From a virus, in the IMG/VR virus record IMGVR_UViG_3300033490_000009, positions 1 to 11,913 of that record: a stretch of 11,913 nucleotides of DNA, one strand, 5' to 3'. The notes below the pieces were generated by a model, which worked only from the letters and a program-made list of their open reading frames with translations, had not been told where the DNA came from and searched no databases. The position numbers were made by a program, and so were the translations under genes. This document shows, one piece after another, positions 1 to 11,913 of the stretch. How positions within the stretch are numbered: the first letter of the stretch is position 1; each line of letters starts with the position of its first letter.

Positions 1-1561
1 CTATCGCTTCTTTTTGCTTGTCAACCCACTCGTAATACTTGCGCTTAATGTCTTCGTAAAACTGCTTGCGGTAGTTAAACCAATCCTGCCATTGCTTCTT
101 TAAAGTTTCAATGTAGTCAGCCCAGCGACGCTCTATGTTATGCTGGGATTGGAGCATGTGTTGCCGCCACTCAGCCCATTCGTCTTTCTTCGTCTCGGTT
201 TGTTTTCCTTCTTCTCCCGTGACACCTAACCCGCTCAAGTCGCCCTTTAGAAGTTTCTTTGCCAATTCTAACGGGTCTTCGGTCATTTCTTCTTTTTTGC
301 CTTTCGTTTTTGCCTCTTTCGCTTTTTGTTGTCGCTCCCATTCTTCGGCTTCCTTGCGGGCTTTCTCGCCTTCGTCTACGAGCGGGCGCAACTCTTTCGG
401 AAGCATTAACTTAGCAAGCCAACTGCTAATTTTGCCCGTCTTTTCGTCAATCCACCTGATTAGGAGTGCGAGACCTATTGCAACCGCACCAATTCCGAGA
501 ATTATCGGGTTTATTACAGCCGCTATGCCCGCCCCGATAACTTTCAGAATATCCCACAACTTACTGAGCCAGCCAACTAAATTCTTAATCCAATCAACTA
601 CTTTGAGTATGCCTAAGGCTTTTAGACCGTCAGCAACCCATTTAATTCCATGCCCCACAGCGCCAAACAAAACAGCCAGCCCCGCTAACACTGCCGCCAA
701 CATTACAATGTGACTGACAAAAGAAGCGAGGGTCGGGTGTGCTTCTTCAAATGCTTTGAGAGAAGCGACTATCTTGTTAATGCCTTCGGCTATGCGCTCT
801 ACCGTGTCAGCAACATTGCCGAGGTTTTCCGCCGTTAGCGCTTGCAACGACGCTTTCAATGTGCTGAGAGCGTCAGTCATTCGGTCAATCTTATTTGCTG
901 TTTCGTCGCTAACTACTACGCCTAATTCACGATACTTAGCAATGAGATTGTCAATTTCTTGTGCGCCCTCACGAAGAATAGGCAGCAATGTGTAGGCTCG
1001 GCGACCAAACATTTCAAACAAAATTTGTGCTTGCTGGGCTTGGTCTGGGATTTTGGCGATTTCTTTCAGCAAAAGCACGAATTGCTCCAACGGGTCGTTG
1101 GTTTGGGATTGCACAGTTTGACCGAGCACTGCTAAAGCCTTCGTCAACTCATTAACTCTGTTTCCTTTCTCAGCAACCGCTTGGGCGGCTTGTTGGAAGG
1201 CTACTTGCATGCGCATGATAAAAAATGGAATTAACTCAGCGTGGATTTCTAAGTCTTGGAGCATGGCACGGTAGACAGAGTATTTTTCTACAGTCGTGCC
1301 GATTTGAAGGGCTTCCTCACGCAACTGATTGGCGTGGCGTGCGCCAGCAACGGCAAGGGCGGTAAATGTGCCCGCAACGACAGCGCCTATCTTAGCGAGC
1401 GTGTTAAGGGCTTCCTCGTTTTGCTTGAAAAACTGAGTTAGCCGCCCAAAGACCGATTGGGCGTGCTGGCTAAGCCCCTCAAGTTGCTGCTTGACCTGAT
1501 TGACCGCTTGCGAAACATTTTCTTGCGCACGAATTAGGATTTCAACCGTTGCCTCTGCCAT
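1..1561 (-). CDS. Tail tape measure protein, first 520 codons only (gene runs off the left edge of the window)
   Basis: Absent from the supplied ORF track because no stop lies inside the window. Hand translation of the minus strand from the ATG (cat at 1559-1561) stays open to nt 2: MAEATVEILIRAQENVSQAVNQVKQQLEGL...QAQILFEMFGRRAYTLLPILREGAQEIDNLIAKYRELGVVVSDE... It has long helical/coiled-coil-like stretches, a hydrophobic block (LASFVSHIVMLAAVLAGLAVLFGAVG...IGAVAIGLALLIRW) and a K/E-rich segment, all typical of tape measure proteins. GGTGA lies 6 nt upstream of the ATG. The gene follows the tail chaperone genes. The + strand ORFs 135-713, 756-995 and 1256-1441 are antisense shadows of it. 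Confidence 0.8.
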   Translation of the reverse strand, partial: MAEATVEILIRAQENVSQAVNQVKQQLEGLSQHAQSVFGRLTQFFKQNEEALNTLAKIGAVVAGTFTALAVAGARHANQLREEALQIGTTVEKYSVYRAMLQDLEIHAELIPFFIMRMQVAFQQAAQAVAEKGNRVNELTKALAVLGQTVQSQTNDPLEQFVLLLKEIAKIPDQAQQAQILFEMFGRRAYTLLPILREGAQEIDNLIAKYRELGVVVSDETANKIDRMTDALSTLKASLQALTAENLGNVADTVERIAEGINKIVASLKAFEEAHPTLASFVSHIVMLAAVLAGLAVLFGAVGHGIKWVADGLKALGILKVVDWIKNLVGWLSKLWDILKVIGAGIAAVINPIILGIGAVAIGLALLIRWIDEKTGKISSWLAKLMLPKELRPLVDEGEKARKEAEEWERQQKAKEAKTKGKKEEMTEDPLELAKKLLKGDLSGLGVTGEEGKQTETKKDEWAEWRQHMLQSQHNIERRWADYIETLKKQWQDWFNYRKQFYEDIKRKYYEWVDKQKEAI

Positions 1562-1591
1562 GCTATCTCACCACACTCACTTGCCCCCTAC

Positions 1592-1623
1592 GGGCAGAAT
1601 TTATTCGGATAAATTCCAAGCCC
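1592..1623. repeat. AT-rich 8-4-8 palindrome GAATTTAT-TCGG-ATAAATTC (1597-1616) clamped by GGGC/GCCC; copy 1 of 2
   Basis: Perfect 8-bp inverted repeat with a 4-nt spacer, flanked by GGGC (1592-1595) and GCCC (1620-1623). It lies between the stop of the ATG-less frame (1631) and the tape measure start (1561). A 19/20 identical copy is at 5634-5653. Confidence 0.6.
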
Positions 1624-1630
1624 GCCCCGC

Positions 1631-1837
1631 TTAGAATAAGCCTTCCGCTTCCTTTATCAATTCCTGCAGGTTTAGCAAAATCAACTCGGTTTGGGCGAGG
1701 TTGAGGTTGAGGAAATCGTCTATGGAGTTGACTATGCGGTATTTGGCAAGTAGGATAAAGATTTTGGTGATTGAAGCGCCCCCCAACCCTAACCCTTCGG
1801 GTTGAGGGGCGGTAACCTTACGCTTGCTGAAAGAAGC
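1631..1837 (-). CDS. Candidate recoded (+1 frame) C-terminal extension of the tail assembly chaperone (gpG/gpGT-like arrangement); no start codon of its own
   Basis: The minus-strand frame shifted +1 relative to ORF 1818-2072 is open from just after a TAG (1838-1840) to TAA (1631-1633). It reads ASFSKRKVTAPQPEGLGLGGASITKIFILLAKYRIVNSIDDFLNLNLAQTELILLNLQELIKEAEGLF. The C-terminal 45 aa look like genuine amphipathic-helix coding sequence. It has no ATG and no GGTGA Shine-Dalgarno, which the other genes here have. The only in-frame alternative start is a TTG at 1784-1786, buried in a hairpin. It sits exactly where the T part of G/GT lies in siphophages. Confidence 0.3.
   Translation of the reverse strand, partial: ASFSKRKVTAPQPEGLGLGGASITKIFILLAKYRIVNSIDDFLNLNLAQTELILLNLQELIKEAEGLF
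1777..1811 (-). promoter_or_regulatory. 13-bp GC-rich stem-loop starting 6 nt after the chaperone stop codon
   Basis: Minus-strand sequence CGCCCCTCAACCC-GAAGGGTTA-GGGTTGGGGGGCG pairs over 13 bp (one G:U) with a 9-nt loop. No T-tract follows, so it is not a classical terminator. It could act as a recoding stimulator, an RNA stability element or a coupling element. Confidence 0.4.
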
Positions 1838-2072
1838 CTAAGGCGGGGCGCTCAAGCCATTCCTCAAACGAGATTTGCTCTCCCGTTTTGAGTGTGTGAA
1901 TTCGCCAGTCAAGCCACGCTACTGCCTCAATCCGCTTGGCGGGCGGAAGGTCTTCAAGGCTCTCAAGCCCCGTGCCAAACCGCTCACAGAATTCAATCAA
2001 GTCTTTCCAACGCAGCAACTTGAAATCGTCTTCACTCCATTTGCCCGCCAGCGTCATGACTTCCTCGGTCAT
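1818..2072 (-). CDS. Tail assembly chaperone-like protein (84 aa)
   Basis: ORF track. ATG overlaps the upstream stop (ATGA), with GAGGTGA 6 nt upstream. It is small and acidic (MTLAGKWSEDDFKLLRWKDLIEFCERFGTGLESLEDL...) and lies between the major tail and tape measure genes, the position of gpG-type chaperones. The function call rests mainly on position. Confidence 0.55.
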   Translation of the reverse strand: MTEEVMTLAGKWSEDDFKLLRWKDLIEFCERFGTGLESLEDLPPAKRIEAVAWLDWRIHTLKTGEQISFEEWLERPALGFFQQA

Positions 2073-2269
2073 TTCCTATCACCTCGGGCGTCTAATACCT
2101 TCAGAATGTCGTGCCAGCGCTCTCGCACCATAGGCTCGGCAGCACCAACCCCTGTCTTGACCAACTTCCAAAAGTCATGCTCCCTCAAACCTACACGCTT
2201 GCAAAACTCGTCTACGCCTTCCTTCATGGCGGCAATGTAAAGCATTTCACGCTCGTAGCGTGTCAGCAT
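2069..2269 (-). CDS. Small (66 aa) helix-turn-helix-like protein, function unknown
   Basis: ORF track, with AGGTGA 6 nt upstream of the ATG. The segment LTRYEREMLYIAAMKEGVDEFCKRVGLREHDFWKLV follows the sigma70-region-4/LuxR-type HTH spacing (LxxxEREhh...EG.s..Eha..hGhs...h...h). I recognised this by eye and did not search it. Confidence 0.5.
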   Translation of the reverse strand: MLTRYEREMLYIAAMKEGVDEFCKRVGLREHDFWKLVKTGVGAAEPMVRERWHDILKVLDARGDRK

Positions 2270-2284
2270 GTCGGCTCACCTTCA

Positions 2285-3097
2285 CTACTCAATCGAAATG
2301 TTGTTAGCGCTACCTTGCAAAGTGAGCGTCATGACCCACAAATCCGAGCCGCCCGAAACGGGCACTCGGCGGGTAGCAATATGGAAATCGTTTAAGGTCA
2401 AAGTCTTGTTGCCTAACGCAATCGTGATATCTACGGGGGCGGGGGCGTCGGCTGCAAAGTGCGGCGTAAATGGCAGGAAGATTTCGCACGAAAATTCGCA
2501 CTCAGCGACGCCATAGGCTGCGAGGTTAGGCAACCGCTTTTCGTTTGCTGCTTTAGCGGAAAAGTCAGCCGTGACATGCGGGTTGCGGCGCACTCGGAGT
2601 TGAAAGCGGCTAACTTGGTAGTTATTGCCCGCAACGGTCACAACGGCGTCGTGCCAAAGCAGAATGTTGCCGCTAAGGGGTTGAATTGTGGGCGCTGTGC
2701 TGATAAGGCTCGGCTTCATTGCCCGCAGAGAAAGTGTCGCACGCAAGGGCTCGCCGACCCGACCTTCGAGCGAAACTTCGTCTACAAGGCAGCCCAAACC
2801 CTTCACAATGTAGTCGTTTGGCGACCCTGCAACAACGCTGAGGGAAATGTCGTTTTTAATGAGGCTCTCAATGGTCTCTAACTGGCTGTCAACGACGGCG
2901 AATTCGGCGCTAATGGTGGCTTCAACGATTGAGTGATAGAAGAAGACGCCGCCAACGGCTTCCACTCGGCGCACATTCTCGTTAATGTTGATTTCGCCGC
3001 CGCTAACCTTGCCAATTTGAAGCCAGTCGCCCGTTGGCTCTTGCCCCTTTGCGGTTTCGATTTTGTAGCCAAAAATGTCTAACGCATGAGTTTTCAT
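2285..3097 (-). CDS. Major tail (tube) protein candidate (270 aa)
   Basis: ORF track, with GGGGTGA 6 nt upstream. It lies between the neck genes and the chaperone/tape-measure genes. The sequence is beta-rich with no enzymatic motif. The call is positional. Confidence 0.6.
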   Translation of the reverse strand: MKTHALDIFGYKIETAKGQEPTGDWLQIGKVSGGEININENVRRVEAVGGVFFYHSIVEATISAEFAVVDSQLETIESLIKNDISLSVVAGSPNDYIVKGLGCLVDEVSLEGRVGEPLRATLSLRAMKPSLISTAPTIQPLSGNILLWHDAVVTVAGNNYQVSRFQLRVRRNPHVTADFSAKAANEKRLPNLAAYGVAECEFSCEIFLPFTPHFAADAPAPVDITIALGNKTLTLNDFHIATRRVPVSGGSDLWVMTLTLQGSANNISIE

Positions 3098-3120
3098 TCG
3101 CTATCACCCCTAACACTTGC

Positions 3121-3549
3121 CTAAGGCAGCATAGTGACCGCCCGCAGGTTAACTCGTGCGACATGTATGTTGGGCACGGCTTCCTCGATTAGGTAATCGA
3201 CGCTAACAACATAAAGCCCGACAGGTTGCCCCGTCGTGAGCGTGTAGGGCGGCGTCGGGGCGTTTAAAACTGCGTTGACTATCGCAGCGGTTAGGCTGTT
3301 TTTGTCTTCAACCGAGCGGGCGATAACATAGACCTCTATGTTGTCGGTCTCCCGATAAATGTGTTGGTGGCTTTCGGGCACAATTTCGCTACTGACAAGG
3401 GCAATCAAAACGAATGGCTTAGTTATGCGGGTTAGGTCGGTGTCTCGGAGCAAACCCACGCCAATGTCGACCTTGCGACCGCCGCTCACGCTATTGAAGA
3501 CCAGGTCTCTAACCTTTTGCGCAACCTCAAAGGCTGCTAACTGCTTCAT
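3121..3549 (-). CDS. Tail completion/terminator-like neck protein (142 aa)
   Basis: ORF track. ATGA overlap with the upstream gp10-like gene. Its size and position (after the gp10-like gene, before the major tail gene) match HK97 gp11 / DUF3168-type proteins. The call is positional. Confidence 0.5.
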   Translation of the reverse strand: MKQLAAFEVAQKVRDLVFNSVSGGRKVDIGVGLLRDTDLTRITKPFVLIALVSSEIVPESHQHIYRETDNIEVYVIARSVEDKNSLTAAIVNAVLNAPTPPYTLTTGQPVGLYVVSVDYLIEEAVPNIHVARVNLRAVTMLP

Positions 3550-4013
3550 TGCGCAACACCCCGCTTGAATGCTTCGGCTAACTTGGCGATTTGGCTACGC
3601 AGCCACTCGGCGGCTGGCTTCATGAAAGGCTTGCGGATAATGTCGCCGACCTTTTCCCAAGTTGCTGATTTGCCCGACCGCCCTTGCTCAACCCGCTTAG
3701 CGAAAACCCAACCTATGCCTCGCAGGTAAAACCGCAGCGCTCGGGCGTTTACGGGCACGATTATGCGCCTATGACCAAATTCGACATATTGGGCGTATTC
3801 AACATTCGTGTAGACCCGCCCCGTTAAGCCTGAAACTTCGAAGTTGATACTTGCCCGCAGCCTACCCGTGTCTACGGGGGCGTGCTTTTTTGCCTCTCCA
3901 GAAGTGTGGGCGACCAACTTAGCGAATGTGTTGTGAATTTCGTCACGCCCCCGCTTCAACTTGCTAATCGTTTCGTTGACGCCTTTAACAGCGACGCTAA
4001 CCTTAAGCGCCAC
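3546..4013 (-). CDS. HK97 gp10-family phage protein (neck/tail component)
   Basis: Contains the family signature ...KKHAPVDTGRLRASINFEV...VYTNVEYAQYVEFGH... The track extends the ORF to a TTG at 4061. I prefer the in-frame GTG at 4011-4013, which has GAGGTGA 5 nt upstream and overlaps the previous gene by only 11 nt. Confidence 0.85.
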   Translation of the reverse strand: MALKVSVAVKGVNETISKLKRGRDEIHNTFAKLVAHTSGEAKKHAPVDTGRLRASINFEVSGLTGRVYTNVEYAQYVEFGHRRIIVPVNARALRFYLRGIGWVFAKRVEQGRSGKSATWEKVGDIIRKPFMKPAAEWLRSQIAKLAEAFKRGVAQ

Positions 4014-4320
4014 TGGCTTCACCTCGCAGGAAAAGTTTGCTAAAGGTCGGGTAGACTTCAAGTTTGGCGATTTGATAGCGCTTGTAGTTGATTTCGAGAA
4101 TGTCGTCGGTTTGGAATTGAAAGTCGCTAAAGACGAAGTAGACTGCGTCGATAGCGCCTAAGTGGGCGTGCATTAAGGATTGTTTGCCCGCCGAAGGCGT
4201 TACGAGATAGCCTACAGCCGTGCCAGCCATGACTTCTGTTACGCTAACCGTGCCGTCAGCGCTTTCTTCAATCCGTTTGCGCCAAACAACTGCGGGCACA
4301 CGAAGGTTTATCCTCGCCAT
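4003..4320 (-). CDS. Head closure / head-tail adaptor protein (HK97 gp9 / SPP1 gp16-like, 105 aa)
   Basis: ORF track. Size, position and the pattern MARINLRVPAVVWRK...DDILEINYKRYQIAKLE resemble head-tail joining proteins. Confidence 0.6.
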   Translation of the reverse strand: MARINLRVPAVVWRKRIEESADGTVSVTEVMAGTAVGYLVTPSAGKQSLMHAHLGAIDAVYFVFSDFQFQTDDILEINYKRYQIAKLEVYPTFSKLFLRGEASGA

Positions 4321-4799
4321 GCGGAAATCACCTGCCTTGCGATTGGTGGAAGTTGATTGAAATCAACCCGCACTTCGGATTGAATGCTGTCTACAATGTC
4401 GGCGTTAAGCAGCCAAACCGCAAGGTGGGCTACGGCGAGGGCTATGTCGTCGGGAATAGTGCTGTTAAAGCCCGCCAAGTATTCAACGACGGCTTCCCCG
4501 CAATAGGGGTAGGCTAAGACTATGAGCCCAAATTGCTGGGCGTTTAAAATGTCAAGGGCAGTGCCTTCGGGTAAAGCGACGACGCTGATAACTTCGTTGA
4601 CGGGGTGAGCGGAAGTTATGCCCCGCCCGTTGCTGAATGTGATAACTTCGGTTATGTTGCGGGGCTCAAGCGGCACGCCAGTTAGGCGCTCCCAAATCCG
4701 CTCGGCAGCGCCAAGAAAGGCTATGGCTCGGTCTTTCGTCTCCGAGCCCCATTGCACCTCGATTAGGTTGAGCACTTGCGCTTGGGCGGCAGCATTCAT
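4308..4799 (-). CDS. gp6-like head-tail connector protein (163 aa)
   Basis: ORF track. ATGA overlap with the upstream gene, and GGTGA 7 nt upstream of the ATG. The N-terminal helical segment ...KDRAIAFLGAAERIWERLTGVPL... is typical of gp6/SPP1 gp15-like connectors. The position also fits. Confidence 0.6.
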   Translation of the reverse strand: MNAAAQAQVLNLIEVQWGSETKDRAIAFLGAAERIWERLTGVPLEPRNITEVITFSNGRGITSAHPVNEVISVVALPEGTALDILNAQQFGLIVLAYPYCGEAVVEYLAGFNSTIPDDIALAVAHLAVWLLNADIVDSIQSEVRVDFNQLPPIARQVISAWRG

Positions 4800-5251
4800 T
4801 GCGACTTCACCTCTCGCTTAAGCCTTTCAACTAAGTCTTCAAACTCGTCAAACCCGTCTTTGATTTCCGCCTTGAATGCCTCGTAGACCTTCTTAGGCGC
4901 AACGCAGAGATAGACATTGACCTCTATGGCGGGAGAAATGACATATTGGCGGGTTAAGATAATGTGGGTTTCGGCGGGCAACTTAACCGTGTTGTTGACC
5001 GAGTAGAAAGCAAAGACTACATGCCCAAATGCGGTCATGAGTTTCCGTGCGCCAGCGGGCGGAAGTGGCTTCTTTGCTATAAGGCTGTTAAGGATATGCA
5101 CCTTTGCGGTCACAGAGAATAGGTTGAATTGCAAGGTGAGCCAATGCTCGCTATCGCCTGAGAAGACAAACTCAGCGACGGCTTTGAGCAATTCTTCTTT
5201 GTTGCCCTTAAGCCACGCCTTAGCACAATTCAAAAGTTGCTTCACTTTCAT
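4796..5251 (-). CDS. Hypothetical protein (151 aa), first gene of the neck/tail operon
   Basis: ORF track. GCAAGTGT-GTTT-GGTGA-GGCGAC-ATG start context. No motif recognised. It is preceded by a roughly 190-nt leader and a consensus-like promoter. Confidence 0.7.
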   Translation of the reverse strand: MKVKQLLNCAKAWLKGNKEELLKAVAEFVFSGDSEHWLTLQFNLFSVTAKVHILNSLIAKKPLPPAGARKLMTAFGHVVFAFYSVNNTVKLPAETHIILTRQYVISPAIEVNVYLCVAPKKVYEAFKAEIKDGFDEFEDLVERLKREVKSQ

Positions 5252-5446
5252 GTCGCCTCACCAAACACACTTGCCACCCGCCCCACGAAATTTCTCTAAC
5301 GCCTTGACGCAGACATACTTGGTCACTCTCTTGAGTTTCCGTATCACTTTTTCTGAAGCGGGTAAGGTTGTAGATTTCTAAGTCTGAAATCGTGCCCGAT
5401 TTTGACACCATTTTGGGCGATTTCGCCCACATTTTGCCCGCCCCGA

Positions 5447-5475
5447 AATCTACAACCCTATCTAAGGTGTGTCAA
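5447..5475 (-). promoter_or_regulatory. Sigma70-type promoter TTGACA-17 nt-TAGATT reading leftward into the neck/tail operon
   Basis: On the minus strand the -35 TTGACA is the complement of 5470-5475, the spacer is exactly 17 nt, and the -10 TAGATT is the complement of 5447-5452. An A/T-rich UP-like tract (ATTTTAAAGAA) lies just upstream. A GC-rich discriminator (GGGGCGGG) follows. Confidence 0.6.
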
Positions 5476-5517
5476 TTCTTTAAAATGCCCTTTTTCTAAA
5501 AATACCCCAAAGCGTGT

Positions 5518-5539
5518 AGTCTTGGTCATGACCAAGACT
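5518..5539. promoter_or_regulatory. Perfect 22-bp palindrome AGTCTTGGTCA|TGACCAAGACT, candidate operator/activator site
   Basis: Read directly from the sequence. Its dyad (5528/5529) is equidistant from the two flanking promoters: 56 nt to each -35 centre and 79 nt to each -10 centre. Confidence 0.6.
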
Positions 5540-5581
5540 TAGACCTGTAGGGGTTTTTTGGGAAAAAGGGCTTCTAAGAGT

Positions 5582-5610
5582 TTGACACGGGTCGGGTAAA
5601 GTCGTAGATT
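5582..5610 (+). promoter_or_regulatory. Sigma70-type promoter TTGACA-17 nt-TAGATT reading rightward (mirror image of 5447-5475)
   Basis: -35 TTGACA at 5582-5587, a 17-nt spacer, and -10 TAGATT at 5605-5610. It points toward the 3' end of the capsid gene, so any product would be a small or antisense RNA. Confidence 0.45.
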
Positions 5611-5633
5611 TCAGGTCGGGTCGGTCGCAGGCG

Positions 5634-5653
5634 GATTTTATTCGGATAAATTC
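5634..5653. repeat. Copy 2 of the AT-rich 8-4-8 palindrome (GATTTTAT-TCGG-ATAAATTC)
   Basis: 19/20 identical to 1597-1616. It lies just downstream of the capsid terminator on the minus strand. Confidence 0.6.
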
Positions 5654-5668
5654 TACTTGGGCAGGGCT

Positions 5669-5713
5669 AAAAAGTAAAAGCAGGAGCGGGAGCGGTTAGA
5701 CCCCCGCCCCTGC
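5669..5713 (-). terminator. Rho-independent terminator of the major capsid gene
   Basis: Minus strand: GCAGGGGCGGGGG-TCTAACCG-CTCCCGCTCCTGC forms a 13-bp stem (two G:U pairs). It is followed directly by TTTTACTTTTT and begins 37 nt after the capsid stop codon. Confidence 0.8.
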
Positions 5714-5750
5714 GGGCTTCTTTACGGGTCTACCTTAACCTACCTTCCTA

Positions 5751-6929
5751 TCACACAATCTTAACCGCCGAAGGCTCGTCGTAAGGCACGCCAATGAAGT
5801 CAGCACGCATTGTAGTAACGAGAATGTCGGTCTGCTTGACAATATCCCGCTGTGTTTCAACCCTCAAGCCACGCCTGACACCAAGCAGGAAGGCTCGGCG
5901 GTTGAAGACCAAGGCGTGCACGGAAGCGGGCACAAAGGCGCTGACGACGACAGGCTTACCGTAAACCTTAGCCAATTCGCCCGTCACGATAGTCGCCTGT
6001 GCCCCATACTTGTCAACCGTGCTAACTTCTTCCCAACCGACCATTTCGGCAAATTTGGCGGGGTTGACGACAACGACGACTTCGTTAGGGTTGACGCCCA
6101 ACTTGCCCATTTGAGCGCACGCTTGCTGAATGTGTTGCGCTGCGAAAGTGCCAATATCAAGCGAGTGAGCGCCCTTCAAAATCCCATTCCAAACCTTAAG
6201 CAGCGGGTCAGTGCTGGAAGTGTCGCCATTGAGGATAGCATTCTCGAGCGCCTCAGCAAAGGCTTGTGCCAACGCTGCTTGGAATTCGGGCATAATCGCC
6301 ACAATGCTATCCTCGGTAACTTCGTCGGCGACTTCAACGCCCGCAGCCAATTTCTTAGCGTCGAGCGTCAAGCCCTGTGCGGAAGCGTTGCTGAGAGTGA
6401 TAGAAGTTGCGGGCGCAACATAAACGACGCTAATCCCGCTGATAGACAGAGGGATTTTGTAGGTCTGGCTCGGCATGTCGACTTGAGGCAGCAATTGGGC
6501 AAGGCTCGGCTGCAAGCGAATGAGTTGCAGCACTCGGTTGGAGAATGTGGTCGGAATGTAGTTGACTAATTCGCTGCCAGTGACCGCCTTTGTGACTTCG
6601 ACGAAGCGGCGCTCAAGCCAGCCCTCAGTGGGCAAGTGGCGCAACCGCCTAATCGAGGCAAAGACAGTGTAGGCGTCGGCAAGGTCTTGCCACTTAGCAA
6701 TTTGCTCGTCGGTCGCCCGCATGAGCAGGAAGTTTTCAAACTTTTCCTGTGCGGTGTTACCCTCAACCTCAATGCGGGCTCGGGCGCTAACGCCCTTAGA
6801 CAAAATTTCTTCGACATTGGCGACCCGCTCTTCGAGCGCCTTGACTAAGCGCTCGGTCGCCGCAACTTTGTCAGCAATGTTTGAAACGACATTAAGCGTC
6901 TTTTCGACTTCTTGCAGCACTTCCTTCAT
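5751..6929 (-). CDS. Major capsid protein, HK97 fold, with N-terminal coiled-coil (delta/scaffold-like) domain
   Basis: ORF track. GGAGGTG lies 8 nt upstream. The N-terminal ~100 aa are helical (MKEVLQEVEKTLNVVSNIADKVAATERLVKALEERVANVEEIL...). The body resembles HK97-family capsid proteins (...IPTTFSNRVLQLIRLQPSLAQLLP...VDKYGAQATIVTGELAKVYGKPVVVSAFVP...). It directly follows the prohead protease gene. Confidence 0.9.
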   Translation of the reverse strand: MKEVLQEVEKTLNVVSNIADKVAATERLVKALEERVANVEEILSKGVSARARIEVEGNTAQEKFENFLLMRATDEQIAKWQDLADAYTVFASIRRLRHLPTEGWLERRFVEVTKAVTGSELVNYIPTTFSNRVLQLIRLQPSLAQLLPQVDMPSQTYKIPLSISGISVVYVAPATSITLSNASAQGLTLDAKKLAAGVEVADEVTEDSIVAIMPEFQAALAQAFAEALENAILNGDTSSTDPLLKVWNGILKGAHSLDIGTFAAQHIQQACAQMGKLGVNPNEVVVVVNPAKFAEMVGWEEVSTVDKYGAQATIVTGELAKVYGKPVVVSAFVPASVHALVFNRRAFLLGVRRGLRVETQRDIVKQTDILVTTMRADFIGVPYDEPSAVKIV

Positions 6930-6948
6930 GCGGTTAACACCTCCTTAA

Positions 6949-7914
6949 TCACTTGCACAACGCTTTTTCTAATTCTCGGCGCAATTGCTCAAGCGACCTA
7001 CGGATGTAGGCGAGCGGGTTTTCCCACCCGCAAGCCTCAAGCAACTCCAATTCCTCAGGCGTGTAAGAGCGAAACTCGGGCGGCTCTTTATCCGCCTTGC
7101 GGTAATACTTCACAATCGCCCGATAAACTTTCTCTCTGTCTTCCTCGGGGATATCGACGCCGCCTCGAGCACCTAACAGCGCCGCCATGGCAGCGACAAC
7201 GCCCCGCCAAATTGCGTAGGGTTTCCCGTCGATTACATCAACATGCGGGAGTTTGTAAGCGCCAAAGGTGTCGAGCCTCTCGTCGTCAGCCCAGAAAAAC
7301 CGCTTAGCATAGCGGCGCTGCTTTTCCTTGTCTTGCAAATCCTCGTTAGTTTCTACGCCCACATACTTGCGCCACCTTTTCTCGCTTTCGTCAGCATTCC
7401 ACTCTCGGTCGAAATCCTCGTAAAGCGGAAACTCAGCGTCATTGTCGGGCACAATGCCTTTCTTCACTAACTCCATGTCGCTATCACCCTCCTTTTGTAT
7501 CAAGGCTTGCGGATTTGCTGGGAGTGTCACAATCGAAGTTTCAATCCACTCCCATTCCGCATAGGTGTTGCCTTCAATTCGCCTCGGAATGAAACCAATG
7601 CTAAGACCTCGCACAATACCTTCGTCGACAAGTTGCTTGATTTCCTGCGCAAACTGTGTGGAAGCGAAAACGAATTGCACCTTAATTGCGTCGTCGGAGA
7701 TTTCGACATTGACGACTTTACCTATGGGGCGGTTAGGGTCGTGCTGCCAAAGGAGCACGGGGTTAGCGAGGTAGTCTTGCAGGTTAATGCAGCCTTTGGG
7801 GTTTACGATTTCGTTGAGCCTATCCTTCACTGCGGTCGTCGCCACGCCCGAGTAGATTTCCCCGCCGCTATCGGTTTCAATTTGCCTTGTGACCAAATAG
7901 AGCATATCTTTCAT
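6949..7914 (-). CDS. HK97-family prohead serine protease (S78-type) with ~175-aa C-terminal extension
   Basis: The N-terminal ~145 aa carry the family pattern ...NPVLLWQHDPNRPIGKV...GLSIGF...ETSIVTLPANPQA. The C-terminal half (...FGAYKLPHVDVIDGKPYAIWRGVVAAMAALLGARGGVDIPEEDREKVYRAIVKYYRK...LEQLRRELEKALCK) is an extra domain. Confidence 0.9.
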   Translation of the reverse strand: MKDMLYLVTRQIETDSGGEIYSGVATTAVKDRLNEIVNPKGCINLQDYLANPVLLWQHDPNRPIGKVVNVEISDDAIKVQFVFASTQFAQEIKQLVDEGIVRGLSIGFIPRRIEGNTYAEWEWIETSIVTLPANPQALIQKEGDSDMELVKKGIVPDNDAEFPLYEDFDREWNADESEKRWRKYVGVETNEDLQDKEKQRRYAKRFFWADDERLDTFGAYKLPHVDVIDGKPYAIWRGVVAAMAALLGARGGVDIPEEDREKVYRAIVKYYRKADKEPPEFRSYTPEELELLEACGWENPLAYIRRSLEQLRRELEKALCK

Positions 7915-7943
7915 TCCCGCTCACCAAAGACACTTGCGCAAGT

Positions 7944-8023
7944 TGGTGGAGGCGGCGGGAGTTGCACCCGCTTCCGACGCCAGCCACTTTGGGCTTAGGC
8001 GTCGTCAACACTCCGTCGCCCCC
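7944..8023 (-). ncRNA. tRNA-like RNA with tmRNA tRNA-like-domain architecture (acceptor stem with G3:U70, T-arm, encoded CCA; no D-arm or anticodon loop)
   Basis: Minus strand reads GGGGGCG-ACGGAGTGTTGA-CGACGCC-TA-AGCC-CAAAGT-GGCT-GGCGTCG-GAA-GCGGG-TGCAACT-CCCGC-CGCCTCC-A-CCA. This gives a 7-bp acceptor stem, a 5-bp T stem with a 7-nt loop, and a closed 7+4-bp hairpin in place of the anticodon arm. It starts 3 nt after the portal stop codon. Confidence 0.45.
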
Positions 8024-8026
8024 ACC

Positions 8027-9958
8027 TCAATCTACGGGCACTATAGTGCACCTGCAATTAATGACTTCTTCGGGTTGCCCTTCGGGGTCGCAAGGGAAAC
8101 GAAGCCGTGCGCCCGACGGCAGCACGAAGTAGTCGTCTAAGTCAACAATGACGCCTTCCATGTCTCTGTGGCTATCCCTAACTCTTTCGTCGTGGGCGGT
8201 AACCCACATTTTGCGCTTAACGCCTACGGCACGGAGGCTTTCCTCGTAGCCCAAGTTAAGCGCCGCCGTCGTCTCGGTGCGGGCAATCCGCTCAGCACGC
8301 CAAGTTTCGAGGTCGCCCAAAACTTCTTCAACCGCACCGATTAGGTCGCTCCAACCGCCGCCCTCGGCTAAAGCGTCGCCAAGTCTGATTTTGAGCTGCT
8401 CCCATGTCGTCTCGGTAATCCAGCGAATTCGCCGCTTGAATGACATTAGGCGGGCTTTAACTTTGGCGTCATAAATCAACGGGTCGACTTCAACGCCAAA
8501 CGCCTTAGGCGTGTCACGGAGAATGTCTTCTAAGACGGGCAACAAGATTTTTGCCAATTCTTCGGCTTCTTCGTCGAGGTTGAAAAGGAAGTCAACGATA
8601 TCCTTGCGGAAATAGGCATTAAGGTCGGATTTAAGACGGCGGCGCAACGATTGGGCGTAATCCTTGACCGCCTCACGCACAAGGCGCTCGTATCTATCGT
8701 GCAGCCGCAGGAATTTGAGCCACATTTCTTTGTAGGTGCGGGGAATTCGCTTCGTAACAACGACTAACTCGTCGCACTCCTTAGTTTGTTGCTGCGGCTT
8801 TTGTTGAGCGATAGGCACGATATTAAGGTTGCCCCACCAAGCGTCGCCCCACGGAAGCGGGTCTTGGAAGCCTAAAGTTTCACGGGCTTCGTTGATTGTG
8901 ATAATGCCCCTGTCAACGAGATTACCCAACGAATTAGCGACCTCGGCGATATTCTCCTTCAGGGCTTCAACTTGGCTAAGGTCGTAAGCGCACCAAAGTT
9001 GCGGGTTGACTTTGGGGAAAAACTGCGTGTTGAGCGTTTCCTCAATCAGCCTAAGGAGCGGGATTATGGTTTCCCGCCAGAAAATCTTGGTTTGCTCTCG
9101 TGCGTTGGCGTAGTTGGCATACTCGTAAATCCCGACGACGGCGGGCGGCACATTCAAGCAGGCTAAGATTTCTTCACGCAGAATTCGTCGCATTTCAACT
9201 AAGTCGCCCGCCTTGAAGGAAGTGTCAATCGTTTTAGTCTCATAATCCGAGCCCTCGAGCAATAGCCACTTAAACCGTTGACCTCGCCCGTGGCGGCTCT
9301 GAATGCGCTCGATAATGCGCTGTTTCGTCGCTTCGGGCAACGAAGACTTGGTGATTAGGATTGTCAACGGTTGTGCGCCGTGAAACAGGTATTCCGCTAA
9401 CAGGCGGTCGCATTCGTTGATTAGCGTGACTGCGTTTTGAATGGAGTAAAGGAGCGATAAACCTTGCGCCCTCGGGTCAGTCGGGTCGGGCAACTTGAAG
9501 TGCACTATGTCGTCAACCGACACGGTCACAACTTTGTCGGCGGTCATAATTTGGGCTTCCTTGCCGTCAACGGTGAAACTAATGCTGCTTGGGTGAATGT
9601 AGTCAAGCCCGAGAAACCGTCGCCCGACTTTGCGGATAAGCCAGTAGGAGTTTCCGAAGACAATCAAGTCGGTTGCGGTCGTGGCGGTAAAGTCGTTGTT
9701 GCTCATTCCGACGGCGACCGATTTGGCTAAGTGCCCAAAGTTTGGGTCGTCTTCGTTTAACTCAAATTCGCCGTTGTAGACTAAGAGTGGCACGGAAGCG
9801 GCTGAGTTGCTAATGCGGCTTAAGGCAGCCCGCACGATAGGGTTGCGGATAATGTCGGCTAAGGGGCTCGTCGGCATGCTCGTCTCGACGAAGTAAACCT
9901 CTCCCGCAGCGTCTCGGTAAAGCCACTTTTGCACCAACTCACGCAGTTTCTTCAGCAT
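8027..9958 (-). CDS. Portal protein (HK97-type) fused to a C-terminal Mu-F / SPP1 gp7-like head morphogenesis domain
   Basis: The N-terminal ~400 aa are portal-like (...FGNSYWLIRK...LLLEGSDYETKTID...REEILACLNVPPAVVGIYEYANYANAREQTKIFWRETIIPLL...). The C-terminal ~230 aa carry the Mu-F signature ...RAERIARTETTAALNLGYEE...WVTAHDERVRDSHRDMEG...INCRCT. The track start (GTG at 9976) lies inside the GCAAGTGT box. The ATG at 9956-9958 has GGTGA 5 nt upstream and is preferred. Confidence 0.9.
   Translation of the reverse strand: MLKKLRELVQKWLYRDAAGEVYFVETSMPTSPLADIIRNPIVRAALSRISNSAASVPLLVYNGEFELNEDDPNFGHLAKSVAVGMSNNDFTATTATDLIVFGNSYWLIRKVGRRFLGLDYIHPSSISFTVDGKEAQIMTADKVVTVSVDDIVHFKLPDPTDPRAQGLSLLYSIQNAVTLINECDRLLAEYLFHGAQPLTILITKSSLPEATKQRIIERIQSRHGRGQRFKWLLLEGSDYETKTIDTSFKAGDLVEMRRILREEILACLNVPPAVVGIYEYANYANAREQTKIFWRETIIPLLRLIEETLNTQFFPKVNPQLWCAYDLSQVEALKENIAEVANSLGNLVDRGIITINEARETLGFQDPLPWGDAWWGNLNIVPIAQQKPQQQTKECDELVVVTKRIPRTYKEMWLKFLRLHDRYERLVREAVKDYAQSLRRRLKSDLNAYFRKDIVDFLFNLDEEAEELAKILLPVLEDILRDTPKAFGVEVDPLIYDAKVKARLMSFKRRIRWITETTWEQLKIRLGDALAEGGGWSDLIGAVEEVLGDLETWRAERIARTETTAALNLGYEESLRAVGVKRKMWVTAHDERVRDSHRDMEGVIVDLDDYFVLPSGARLRFPCDPEGQPEEVINCRCTIVPVD
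8029..8057 (-). promoter_or_regulatory. Possible promoter TTGCAG-17 nt-TAGATT for the tRNA-like RNA, embedded in the portal 3' end
   Basis: On the minus strand the -35-like TTGCAG is the complement of 8052-8057, the spacer is 17 nt, and TAGATT is the complement of 8029-8034. That is the same -10 hexamer as the two promoters at 5447-5610. G1 of the tRNA-like element lies 5 intervening nt downstream. Confidence 0.3.
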
Positions 9959-10010
9959 GTCAATCACCAACAACACTTGCGCCCCGCTAAGTGAGTTTGG
10001 TGATTGGCGA

Positions 10011-10238
10011 ATGAGCGAGCGAGCGAAATTGTTTGTGCTGATTTATGCAATTACCGCTATTGTGTTGCTTGAAGCGATAGCGCTGTGGAAGGGCATAGAC
10101 GGCGTGGCGCTGTCGGCGACTATAGCGGCTATCGCTTTATTAGCCCCGTCGCCGCTCAAGTTTTTGCAGGTGGGCAACATTAAGGTTGAAAAGTTGGGCA
10201 AGGGTAACGGAGACGACAGCGGCGAGGCGGGGAGGTGA
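10011..10238 (+). CDS. Small two-TM membrane protein (75 aa), function unknown, in the position usually held by the small terminase
   Basis: MSERAKLFVLIYAITAIVLLEAIALWKGIDGVALSATIAAIALLAPSPLKF... has two hydrophobic helices and an acidic/Gly tail. The ATG at 10011 has GGTGA 7 nt upstream. The track start at 9957 has no Shine-Dalgarno and overlaps the portal start. Its stop TGA lies inside the terminase Shine-Dalgarno. Confidence 0.5.
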   Translation: MSERAKLFVLIYAITAIVLLEAIALWKGIDGVALSATIAAIALLAPSPLKFLQVGNIKVEKLGKGNGDDSGEAGR

Positions 10239-10243
10239 GGGGT

Positions 10244-11653
10244 ATGGCTGCTAAGCGGCAGGTTAGGGTTGAAGCCCCCGCAATCGATTTCTCCCGCTAC
10301 CGCAGCATAGCCGATTTCGCCGAAGATTGCTTGTTTGTGTTTGAAAACAACCGCAAGCAGCGGATTAAGTTGACGCCATATCAGCGGCGCTGGCTGCGTG
10401 AAGTTGAAGACCCCCGCTGGAAGGTTGTTGTGATTTGCGTGCCTAAGCGGGTCGGTAAGTCGCTTTTCAGCGCAATCGTGGCGGTCTATTGGGCGCTGGC
10501 ACGAATGGGCGCTACGGTCGTTGTCTTGAGCACTTCCGAGAAACACGCAAGTAGCGTGACCTTCAAGTATGTGCGCCAGTTTTGTCGGGTTAGCGACCAA
10601 GTCGCCGCTGAAGTTGCTACGCTGGCGCAAAACAAGGTCGAGTTTCGCAACGGAAGCGTGATTAGAGCCGTGCCATGCACGGTTGAAGCGGTTGCGGGAA
10701 TTGCGACCGATTTGCTCATAATCGACGAGTTGGCGCTGATTGACGACGAAGAAGTTGTGCAAATCGCTATGAGCCAAACTGAGAAAGAAGACGCTAAAGT
10801 GCTGATAACCTCGACCGCCTCGGAGCACGGGCACTTGCTCCATAGGCTCTATTTGAAGCACATTAACGGGGAAGCCGAGAAAGAGCGGTTGCGGTTTATC
10901 TATCACGGGGCGGAAATCTATGCTGAGCACCCGTTTATCACGCCCGAGTGGCTCGAGGAAAGGCGGCGGCAAATGCCTGAGTTTCTGTTTCGGCAGTATC
11001 ACCTTAATGAGTGGGGCGTTGCGGGCGAAAAGGTCTTCAAGCCCGAGTTGGTCGAAGCGGCGGTTAGAGACTATCCGCTGCCGCTGCCAATCGAGCGGAT
11101 TGAGGAAGTGTTGGGCGAGAAAGTTGTGGGCTTTGTGTTTACCGCTGCGATTGACCGAGCGTTGCCTATGAGTAAGCACGGCGACCGCACGGTCGGCTGC
11201 GTCGTGGCTAATTGTTTGACTGAGGGCGGCAAGGAAAAGTTAGTCGTCGTCGACTTAAAGGTTTTCCCGACGGGCGTCGCCGAAGAAATTAAAGCGTGGC
11301 TAATGCAAGTTGCCAGCCAATATTCGCTAACGAGCGTCGTGCTTGAAACCTATCAGGCTTATGACTTATATGCTTGGTGCAAGCAGCGTGGGTTGCCCGC
11401 AAAGTTAGAGCACGCTACGAGAGAAGCCCAACTCGCTGCGTTTCCCGTGCTGATTATGGCGTTTGAGCAAGGCAAGATTATCATTCCCCGCCACGAATTG
11501 CTGATTGATGAATTGCTTGCGTTGGAGCGCACTAACGGCGGAAAGTTTAAGGCAGGGCAAGGCAAACACGACGATACCGTTTTCGCTCTCCTTTGGGCGG
11601 TCTACGAGGCAATCAAGTTTTCCCCGTCTCGGGCGGATATCACGATTATTTGA
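10244..11653 (+). CDS. terL: Terminase large subunit
   Basis: Walker A-like VPKRVGKS, Walker B-like DLLIIDELA, and a C-terminal RNase-H-like nuclease region with ...GKHDDTVFALLWAVY. The track start (GTG at 10235) sits inside the GGAGGTGA Shine-Dalgarno. The ATG at 10244 is 5 nt after it. Confidence 0.9.
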   Translation: MAAKRQVRVEAPAIDFSRYRSIADFAEDCLFVFENNRKQRIKLTPYQRRWLREVEDPRWKVVVICVPKRVGKSLFSAIVAVYWALARMGATVVVLSTSEKHASSVTFKYVRQFCRVSDQVAAEVATLAQNKVEFRNGSVIRAVPCTVEAVAGIATDLLIIDELALIDDEEVVQIAMSQTEKEDAKVLITSTASEHGHLLHRLYLKHINGEAEKERLRFIYHGAEIYAEHPFITPEWLEERRRQMPEFLFRQYHLNEWGVAGEKVFKPELVEAAVRDYPLPLPIERIEEVLGEKVVGFVFTAAIDRALPMSKHGDRTVGCVVANCLTEGGKEKLVVVDLKVFPTGVAEEIKAWLMQVASQYSLTSVVLETYQAYDLYAWCKQRGLPAKLEHATREAQLAAFPVLIMAFEQGKIIIPRHELLIDELLALERTNGGKFKAGQGKHDDTVFALLWAVYEAIKFSPSRADITII

Positions 11654-11824
11654 AAACTGGCGGCAAAAACCGCAATTTTCGACTTGACAGCCCCGCAACT
11701 TTGCGACACAGTGAAATGTGGTTGGCGGTGTAGGAAGGTTAGGAAAACGGCGGGTTTTTGGCTGATTTTGGGCTATTTTTCTTCAACCTTCACCGCCAAA
11801 TGCCTGTTGTAGTTGCCCAGTGAG

Positions 11825-11847
11825 CCAAGAAGCCCGCAAGGGGCGGG
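11825..11847 (-). terminator. Terminator-like hairpin CCCGC-CCCTT-GCGGG-CTTCTT, second copy of the module at 5703-5723
   Basis: Minus strand CCCGCCCCTTGCGGGCTTCTTGG is nearly identical to + strand 5703-5723 (CCCGCCCCTGCGGGCTTCTTT). It is oriented to stop a leftward transcript entering from beyond the right edge. One minus-strand frame has a TAG at 11900-11902. Confidence 0.3.
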
Positions 11848-11913
11848 ACAAAACATGTGACGGCAAAACGGAGGAGCGTGACATTCAACCCGACAAAGGC
11901 TATTTCCATCGGG

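Follow-up and report, generated by a model that had tools for sequence, protein, structure and literature searches.

The window analysed here, an 11.9-kb fragment of an uncultured viral contig (IMG/VR record IMGVR_UViG_3300033490_000009, positions 1 to 11,913, whose numbering is used throughout), carries all its genes on the (-) strand. Between its major capsid gene and the connector-position gene lies a 499-bp gap (5252-5750), which contains an imperfect 168-bp palindrome (5445..5612, dyad at 5528/5529) with an outward-facing promoter-like site on each arm. This palindrome is the core of a non-coding block of about 340 bp (5285-5612). In our judgement there is about an even chance that the block is a repeated and reshuffled intergenic control cassette, acting like the PeSL cassettes of T4-type phages, in which the leftward promoter serves the connector and tail genes and the rightward one is antisense. 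This proposal is supported because the twin sites are the only matches of at least 10/12 to a promoter consensus in the window, because their 17-bp spacing is fixed, because arms of related units lie 5' of genes, and because the block is an accessory, modular and multi-copy element.

The rightward promoter-like site, TTGACA-17-TAGATT, lies at 5582..5610 on the (+) strand and is preceded by A/T tracts at 5550-5580. The leftward site, which has the same boxes and the same spacing, lies at 5447..5475 on the (-) strand, is directed towards the connector and tail genes and has a predicted start near 5440. An earlier note on this DNA had described both sites, their mirror geometry and a perfect palindrome between them. 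All three descriptions are borne out: the two -35 boxes are centred 56 nt, and the two -10 boxes 79 nt, from the dyad, and the centre reads AGTCTTGGTCATGACCAAGACT over 22 bp (5518..5539), with the apex GTCATGAC at 5525-5532. In the window, this is the only palindrome with a perfect half of at least 8 nt. As for the promoter-like sites, simulation gives an expectation of 0.87 matches of that quality per window and of 0.012 per 170 bp. The sequence 5' of the -35 box is AT-rich and reads GGGGTATTTTTAGAAAAAGGGCATTTTAAAGAA, its equivalent being found on the other arm. Identity between the two arms, put at 60-65% by hand alignment, comes out somewhat higher when measured (66% in a multiple alignment, 72% in a BLAST self-match, 67/92 in a gapped pairwise alignment). 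The blocks that had been listed as common to both arms are present, but AAAAAGGGC sits at 5563-5571 and not, by one position, at 5564-5572. The inverted symmetry runs a few bases beyond these blocks, to CCCGAC / GGGGCGGG. Moreover, a third GTAGATTTC box is found at 5370-5378, so that the window holds three matches to it vs 0.23 expected.

The predicted fold of the 184 nt at 5437-5620 reaches -85.6 kcal/mol for the (-) strand and -84.4 kcal/mol for the (+) strand, against a mean of -43 to -47 kcal/mol for shuffled sequences (z = -10.5 and -9.1, respectively; none of 200 shuffles equals it). The gap had been called non-coding, and this stands: its sole internal open reading frame (5220-5432, 70 aa) is not conserved and was ruled out as a coding sequence, a stop codon interrupting it in L003 (L and G numbers designate loci and contigs of relatives; G001 corresponds to L159 plus L160, and G004 is the contig containing L013). 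Rfam yielded only sub-threshold matches to plant microRNA hairpin models, which can be ascribed to the generic effect of a long hairpin. A tRNA search found none, and restriction-site avoidance around TCATGA gave no signal.

Homologous units, hereafter type A, were found in L003, L004, L009, L010, L013, L157, L184 and L185. Those at the capsid-connector site (window, L003, L004, L009, L010, L013b and L157; 14 arms) were scored for their promoter-like boxes. On 13 of the 14 arms, a -35-like and a -10-like hexamer (at least 4/6 and at least 5/6 matches) lie exactly 17 bp apart, and this length is constant despite free divergence of the half of the spacer nearest to the -35 box. Promoter-like arms match the consensus at 9-11 of 12 positions, with TTGACA, TTGCCA, CTGACA or TTACCA as -35-like hexamers and TAGATT or TATATT as -10 boxes; the leftward arm of relatives combines TTGACA, TTGCCA or TTACCA, after 17 bp, with TATATT. 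In every 184-nt unit, the -35 box starts 53-55 bp from the dyad, at position 145-147. Elsewhere, arms are found directly 5' of genes. For example, the leftward arm stands about 35 nt 5' of the connector ATG in L013, where the Shine-Dalgarno sequence and the start codon are at the 3' end of the cassette, while a 190-nt leader intervenes in the window; in L184 and L185 an arm directly precedes the endolysin gene. Taken together, these features agree with the assignment made in the earlier note of two putative sigma70-type promoters facing outwards. The same-side arm is 77-91% alike across phages (connector-facing arm), vs 60-66% between the two arms of one unit. This comparison indicates that the inverted duplication is old and that both arms have been retained, because same-side arms are the more alike. 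G001 and G004 contain further promoter-like sites close to the consensus (TTTACA-17-TATAAT, 11/12), of which that in G001 falls between genes.

The centre of the palindrome shows another kind of conservation. All 15 copies share only the 8-bp apex GTCATGAC. The 4-7-bp flanks vary (AGTCTTG, AGTCTTA, AGTCTTT, TTAAA, GAAATT, GCATTCG, GGTT or AGTTT) and are always the complement of the opposite side. Two versions of the centre coexist in each of G001, G004, L184 and L185, those of G001 being GTCTTTGTCATGACAAAGAC and GCATTCGGTCATGACCGAATGC. In an alignment of eight units, 88% of the cells are paired and 21 pairs have changed on both sides, a result matched by none of 500 shuffles; in shifted registers pairing falls to 34-54%. 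Such variable, self-complementary flanks point to hairpin or cruciform pairing, or to templated correction, and not to one protein reading 22 bp. Either of two processes could have kept the centre perfect: selection for a cruciform or hairpin whose apex is fixed, or templated correction recurring near the dyad. The outer arms behave differently. Their mismatches show no strand bias (54 are G-U-compatible on the sense strand vs 48 on the antisense strand) and are mostly transversions (136 vs 102 transitions), so that these arms do not appear to be held together by RNA pairing. Strand-specific RNA selection, an early impression from RNAalifold, was ruled out by the same count of G-U-compatible mismatches. 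The apex GTCATGAC is also found twice in coding sequence near the tail-tube and chaperone genes (2053 and 2328 in the window, 12920 and 13198 in L184), at positions that are conserved in relatives and with no extended palindrome around them.

The distribution of the cassette was followed in 12 viral and 9 metagenome contigs whose capsid proteins are 91-96% identical to that of the window, and in further relatives reached through connector homologues. Two forms of the capsid-connector spacer were observed: 95-175 bp without the cassette and 480-837 bp with it. The short form consists of the capsid terminator, often the AT-rich palindrome described below, then a GCAAGTG box, the Shine-Dalgarno sequence and the ATG. 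In every case, the insert is flanked by this terminator on one side and by this GCAAGTG/Shine-Dalgarno block on the other. Seven connector lineages carry the cassette at this site and eight do not. The absence of the region from close relatives with the same gene order had been named as an observation that would count against a control region; the region is indeed absent from 8 of 15 lineages, but it is conserved where present. The cassette is therefore real and conserved where it occurs, and dispensable at the capsid-connector site, because 8 of 15 connector lineages lack the insert. Pattern scans of 2.9 million viral contigs matched only this phage group; the 16-nt box pattern, with more than 116 unrelated single matches in viral contigs, was uninformative. 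Two metagenome contigs end within the island (L194 1-200 and L201 1-240), where assembly may have broken at the palindrome, and the cassette may be under-counted in metagenomes.

Each genome contains 2-4 GTCATGAC units, at two hot spots: the capsid-connector spacer and the endolysin side. Window positions 5285-5442 (+) are colinear with, and 80% identical to, positions 1583-1740 of L184, 5' of the endolysin gene, where this segment is followed by a type-A palindrome as in the window. By block colinearity, the rightward arm of the window corresponds to the endolysin-facing arm of L184 and L185. The block is thus oriented towards the endolysin gene at the endolysin site and inverted relative to the structural genes in the capsid-connector spacer. 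Copies across the phage genomes are 55-80% identical. The endolysin copy of L184 is 80% identical to one spacer copy and at most 70% identical to other units; the two share a stem and a -35 variant, which indicates exchange within the genome. 'Type B' units (L013a and the endolysin-side copy of G001) carry CGATTT repeats instead of promoter arms, and the G001 one scores as terminator-like on one strand. In L185, positions 1500-1900 hold a 256-bp tandem duplication with phased boxes and the hairpin AGTTTGTCATGACAAACT; the 65-aa gene called across it is probably spurious.

Within the larger block, the palindrome is preceded, in this order, by segment X, module M3 and a set of four phased boxes. 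Segment X (5285..5329; TGACCAAG, GCGTCAAGGCGTT and GAAATTTCG, in this order) forms the conserved end of the block. Module M3 (5330..5378, (+) strand; from GAGTTTCCGTATCAC to GGTTGTAGATTTC) resembles a degenerate third promoter module, its -35-like and -10 boxes being 32 nt apart; its AAAAAGTGATAYGGAAACTC is unchanged across all block-carrying relatives. The four boxes (5380..5444) follow each other with a 10-11-bp period, as GGGCRAAAT on the (-) strand and ATTTTGSC on the (+) strand, and include a 21-bp direct repeat (5397-5415 and 5418-5436). The G001 genome has 27 occurrences of the same boxes, 12 of which are packed into about 1 kb in its primase/endolysin intergenic region. The leader contains at 5318-5325, on the (-) strand, TGACCAAG, which is identical to one half of the central palindrome; this leader copy shares the variant base of the phage's own palindrome in four of six relatives (TGACAAA with TGACAAAG), L003 and L009 being those in which it does not. 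A conserved fold of the 165-nt leader is weak (consensus -10.8 kcal/mol, covariation term +0.53).

While the structure of the cassette, its conservation, copy number and presence or absence are observed, the mechanism proposed from this organization involves promoter activity, an antisense RNA and a role of the hairpin that are all deduced from sequence. The leftward promoter (5475-5447) would restart transcription of the connector and tail genes just past the strong capsid terminator, and such re-initiation would make their level independent of capsid expression. The rightward promoter (5582-5610), which would drive the endolysin gene at the other site of the cassette, has no gene to drive here. 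At this site it faces the capsid terminator and is hence antisense; it would probably yield no more than an RNA of about 110 nt, antisense to the 3' end of the capsid gene, or else interfere with read-through. A weak terminator-like hairpin on the (+) strand at 5703..5725 (CCCGCCCCTGCGGG plus CTTCTTTACG) is likely the 3' end of this putative transcript. The centre would act by hairpin or cruciform pairing with the fixed GTCATGAC apex rather than as a 22-bp sequence-specific operator, and the repeated modules would serve as recombination points by which the cassette is added, removed, inverted or duplicated.

Several points weigh against this mechanism. The promoter boxes were scored against the sigma70 consensus, which may not be that of the presumed host phylum. 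A promoter so close to the consensus, placed in the late operon of a prophage, would have to be repressed, and a repressor was not identified. Palindromy alone could have produced the second promoter, which has no gene to drive here. In the window, the central hairpin does not qualify as a canonical terminator, as no T-run follows the stem and the terminator scan does not list it. A plain promoter cassette leaves unexplained the four phased boxes and the well-conserved 165-nt X/M3 segment. Finally, the paralogous copy adjoining the primase-helicase gene would suit a replication origin equally well.

The closest parallel is offered by the PeSLs (promoter-early stem-loops). These were described as having a near-consensus sigma70 promoter with an N17 spacer, an AT-rich upstream region, an upstream stem-loop, degraded copies with wrong spacing and an association with indels (PMC4122927). 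Like the PeSLs of T4-type phages (Arbiol et al., 2010, PMC2839356; Comeau et al., 2014, PMC4122927), the present cassette is a composite non-coding module that combines a sigma70-type N17 promoter with AT-rich sequence and a stem-loop upstream. It too occurs in several copies per genome, some of them degraded with wrong spacing, and is tied to indels and swaps between close relatives. The two have, however, no sequence relationship, and the phages concerned here are small, temperate and HK97-like, with an integrase and a Prim-Pol, instead of T4-like. Moreover, two promoters are here fused back to back around one hairpin, which has an invariant GTCATGAC apex and covarying flanks, and boxes phased at 10-11 bp are added. 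The window cassette lies within the structural operon, a location reported as rare for PeSLs, and is separated from the next gene by the 190-nt leader. As for the stem-loop, which in a PeSL lies just upstream of the promoter and serves as the terminator of the upstream gene, a hairpin stands here 53-55 bp 5' of each -35 box; it has no T-run in the window, where the capsid gene has a separate terminator at 5680-5713, but the endolysin-side copy of G001 scores as terminator-like on one strand. Another likeness is to the stoperators and start-associated sequences of mycobacteriophages, which also are short conserved motifs at gene boundaries, late operons included. Those of clusters A and K are single sites of 13-17 bp, unlike the composite of 170-340 bp with promoters and a hairpin considered here.

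Among other explanations, a replication-origin module is possible though rather doubtful. The block would copy the origin region of the phage, with iteron-like boxes, a hairpin palindrome and promoters that open or prime the origin, and the copy in the capsid-connector spacer would serve as a second origin that the phage can do without, or as a cis site comparable to P4 crr. In G001, a GTCATGAC unit lies in a 900-bp divergent region beside the gene for a 941-aa Prim-Pol/D5-like helicase, and ATTTTGSC boxes with 10.5/21-bp phasing are common to this primase-side region and the window. The type-B units, with their CGATTT-repeat arms in place of promoters, would also fit an origin. So would the leftward transcript, which as read from the sequence would start with G-clusters, since G-clusters at the start of a transcript favour an R-loop. 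However, adjacency to the primase gene is true of the paralogous copy of G001 and not of the window copy, and in L184 the copy is about 1.3 kb from the primase gene, with a 202-aa gene between them. The window copy cannot be essential, given its absence from 8 of 15 lineages, there is no pronounced AT-rich unwinding stretch, and an origin would be unusual inside a structural operon. P4 ori/crr and the origins of Staphylococcus aureus pathogenicity islands (SaPI) and phage-inducible chromosomal islands (PICI) are iteron-plus-palindrome origins adjoining primase-helicase genes. With them the block shares phased short direct repeats, a copy beside a replication gene and more than one cis site, but it is without a clear AT-rich unwinding element and, in the window, dispensable and placed in the structural operon. 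The model of the earlier note, in which both promoters are controlled by a dimeric regulator that binds the 22-bp palindrome some 88 bp 5' of the two starts, now appears improbable. Perfect symmetry, an 8-bp core that is invariant in 15 of 15 copies and a constant distance from dyad to promoter would suit it. Nevertheless, reading by one protein does not account for the sequence outside this core, which differs between copies of one genome, as in G001, and still remains symmetric. Moreover, the sole nearby helix-turn-helix candidate (66 aa, 2069-2269) is encoded by relatives with and without the cassette; a link between this gene and the cassette was ruled out for that reason.

Readings that depend on DNA or RNA structure deserve the same scrutiny. 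That the GTCATGAC palindrome acts as an extruded hairpin, either as a structure-dependent promoter, like Frpo or the early promoters of phage N4 but used by host polymerase in a tailed phage of a thermophile, or as the nucleation site of a transcription-primed Prim-Pol/helicase origin, is also improbable. If true, it would explain the covarying flanks, the shared -35 variants and a function in both orientations and at several sites. On its own, the hairpin promoter, in which the palindrome works as a cruciform or as single-stranded DNA and its paired arms rebuild one duplex promoter with -35, -10 and UP elements, seems very unlikely. Filamentous phages, with their minus-strand origin, and rolling-circle plasmids, with their single-strand origins, provide known examples of hairpin promoters. 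In the fold modelled for either strand, both hexamers are base-paired and an internal loop opens within the spacer, both arms of a unit share the same -35 variant (TTGACA/TTGACA, TTGCCA/TTGCCA, CTGACA/CTGACA), and position 4 of the -35 box agrees in every two-armed type-A unit. Such sharing can also be explained by gene conversion between arms, though, and the -10 boxes differ between arms in four units (TAGATT vs TATATT). The excess of transversions among the arm mismatches argues against strong selection for pairing between the outer arms, and a tailed double-stranded DNA phage has no known single-stranded entry stage. The comparison here is with the Frpo/ssi promoters of conjugative plasmids, which act on single-stranded DNA (Masai and Arai, 1997, as cited in PMC11541004). 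By its published description, Frpo is a hairpin made of -35, -10 and UP elements plus their complements (PMC11541004), and a long imperfect hairpin that pairs these elements with their complements is, as a predicted fold, what is found here too. Frpo acts on transferred single-stranded DNA in an orientation-specific manner, whereas the present element is symmetric, folds equally well on both strands and belongs to a double-stranded DNA phage; the resemblance lies in the predicted fold and does not extend to the biology. The prospect of an RNA-level element, namely a long hairpin in capsid read-through transcripts that would be an RNase III-type processing site or a second terminator, is remote. 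With about -85 kcal/mol, the predicted hairpin has a high stability, and it lies on the read-through path of the terminator; against this, the G-U-compatible mismatches lack strand asymmetry, the block occurs in both orientations relative to transcription, and its place is downstream of a strong terminator. Scarcely credible, finally, is an insertion resembling a miniature inverted-repeat transposable element (MITE) that carries outward-facing promoters by chance. Its terminal inverted repeats (GAAATCTACAAC and GTTGTAGATTTC), its small size, its presence/absence polymorphism and its several copies per phage genome are those of a MITE. But no target-site duplication was found at the junctions when filled and empty sites were compared, the flanks being themselves inverted (CCCGCC / GGCGGG), and copies that are 55-80% identical are not near-identical. 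The restriction of the pattern to this phage group among viral contigs tells against it as well. Dispersed host copies, which the earlier note had named as a sign of a MITE, did not appear either: an exact-pattern scan of one genome for each of 185,579 species, which left the two closest NCBI assemblies outside, gave 10 single matches in unrelated taxa, close to the chance estimate of about 6.5.

On the connector side of the cassette, the connector start region (5252..5284, (-) strand) comprises GGGCGGG, a GCAAGTG box (5268-5274) and a GGTGAGG Shine-Dalgarno sequence ahead of the ATG at 5251, and is kept in all relatives, including cassette-free ones. In the structural operon, most gene starts have a GCAAGTG(T/A) motif a few bases 5' of their ribosome-binding site, which is of the GGTGA type (1584, 3120, 5274, 6956, 7937 and 9980 in the window, (-) strand). 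On the capsid side, the capsid transcript ends at a strong intrinsic terminator (5680..5713, (-) strand) with a 14-bp stem containing 10 GC pairs and the tail TTTTACTTTT; all relatives have kept it, whether or not they carry the cassette. Just 5' of it, an extra segment at 5714-5727 (ACCCGTAAAGAAGC on the (-) strand) gives a T-rich tail on the opposite strand. It occurs in five cassette-bearing relatives and also in the cassette-free L198, so that a link between this CCCGTAAAGAAGCC segment and the cassette was rejected. An AT-rich 8-4-8 palindrome (GGATTTTATTCGGATAAATTC, 5634..5653) constitutes a separate recurrent module, which stands alone in cassette-free spacers. In the form ATTGAATTTATT-NN-AATAAATTCAAT it is repeated at several gene boundaries (1597-1616 and 5634-5653 in the window; 6294, 21330 and 25076 in G001; 13691 in G004; 6502 in G005), with a stem of 12-14 bp in some copies, and often lies just 5' of a GCAAGTG box and a Shine-Dalgarno sequence. 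Its appearance is that of an independent element, either an operator or a hairpin for translational control.

The upstream neighbour of the island is an HK97-type major capsid gene (5751..6929, (-) strand; Pfam PF05065, E = 2e-16), itself preceded by genes for a prohead protease (6949-7914, (-) strand) and a portal fused to Mu-F (8027-9976, (-) strand). The downstream neighbour is the connector-position gene (4796..5251, (-) strand, 151 aa), followed on the same strand by a gp10-like gene and then by the tail tube gene. The connector protein had no match in Pfam or PHROGs, and the neighbouring 202-aa and 86-aa proteins had none in PHROGs. Amino-acid identity to relatives is 92-96% for the capsid protein and 61-73% for that of the connector, the most divergent structural gene. 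The drop falls across the spacer, and identity climbs again gene by gene further downstream.

Longer relatives display the layout Prim-Pol/D5-like helicase (leftward), control region, GH108 endolysin, terminase (leftward) and portal through tail, and contigs of 28-29 kb span most of the genome cycle. The cassette occurs in a small group of temperate HK97-like phages, with near-complete contigs of about 28-29 kb. A collection of cultured phages gave no DNA or protein match to the window, and a capsid search of species genomes found no prophages. The 35-kb contig G001 ends with an integrase gene followed by bacterial genes; in detail, its positions 26193-35397 hold the integrase and then genes for a 1766-aa subtilase and a thioredoxin-reductase-like protein. 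The phage part of G001 is only about 27 kb, while completeness estimates of 15-31% would imply a far larger genome. The thioredoxin-reductase-like protein is 95% identical to a protein of an NCBI assembly with a matching gene neighbourhood, and it shares 82-84% identity with proteins that bear the names Armatimonadota or Candidatus Fervidibacter. The host is thus probably a hot-spring thermophile of the Fervidibacter/Armatimonadota lineage, because this flanking gene of the integrated G001 matches proteins of that lineage.

If the block is such a control cassette, movable promoter/stem-loop cassettes, so far described for T4-type phages that are large and lytic, would also exist in small temperate phages of a thermophilic phylum with hardly any cultivated members. 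It would give an example of how late-gene dosage changes when a single non-coding block is gained or lost: the capsid gene stays ahead of the terminator, and the connector, tail and endolysin genes would gain a promoter of their own. The fused palindromic design is unusual, and its invariant 8-bp apex, together with the covariation in its stem, could bring to light a step of transcription or replication that depends on structure. Moreover, the arms provide candidate strong promoters for a host lineage without genetic tools.

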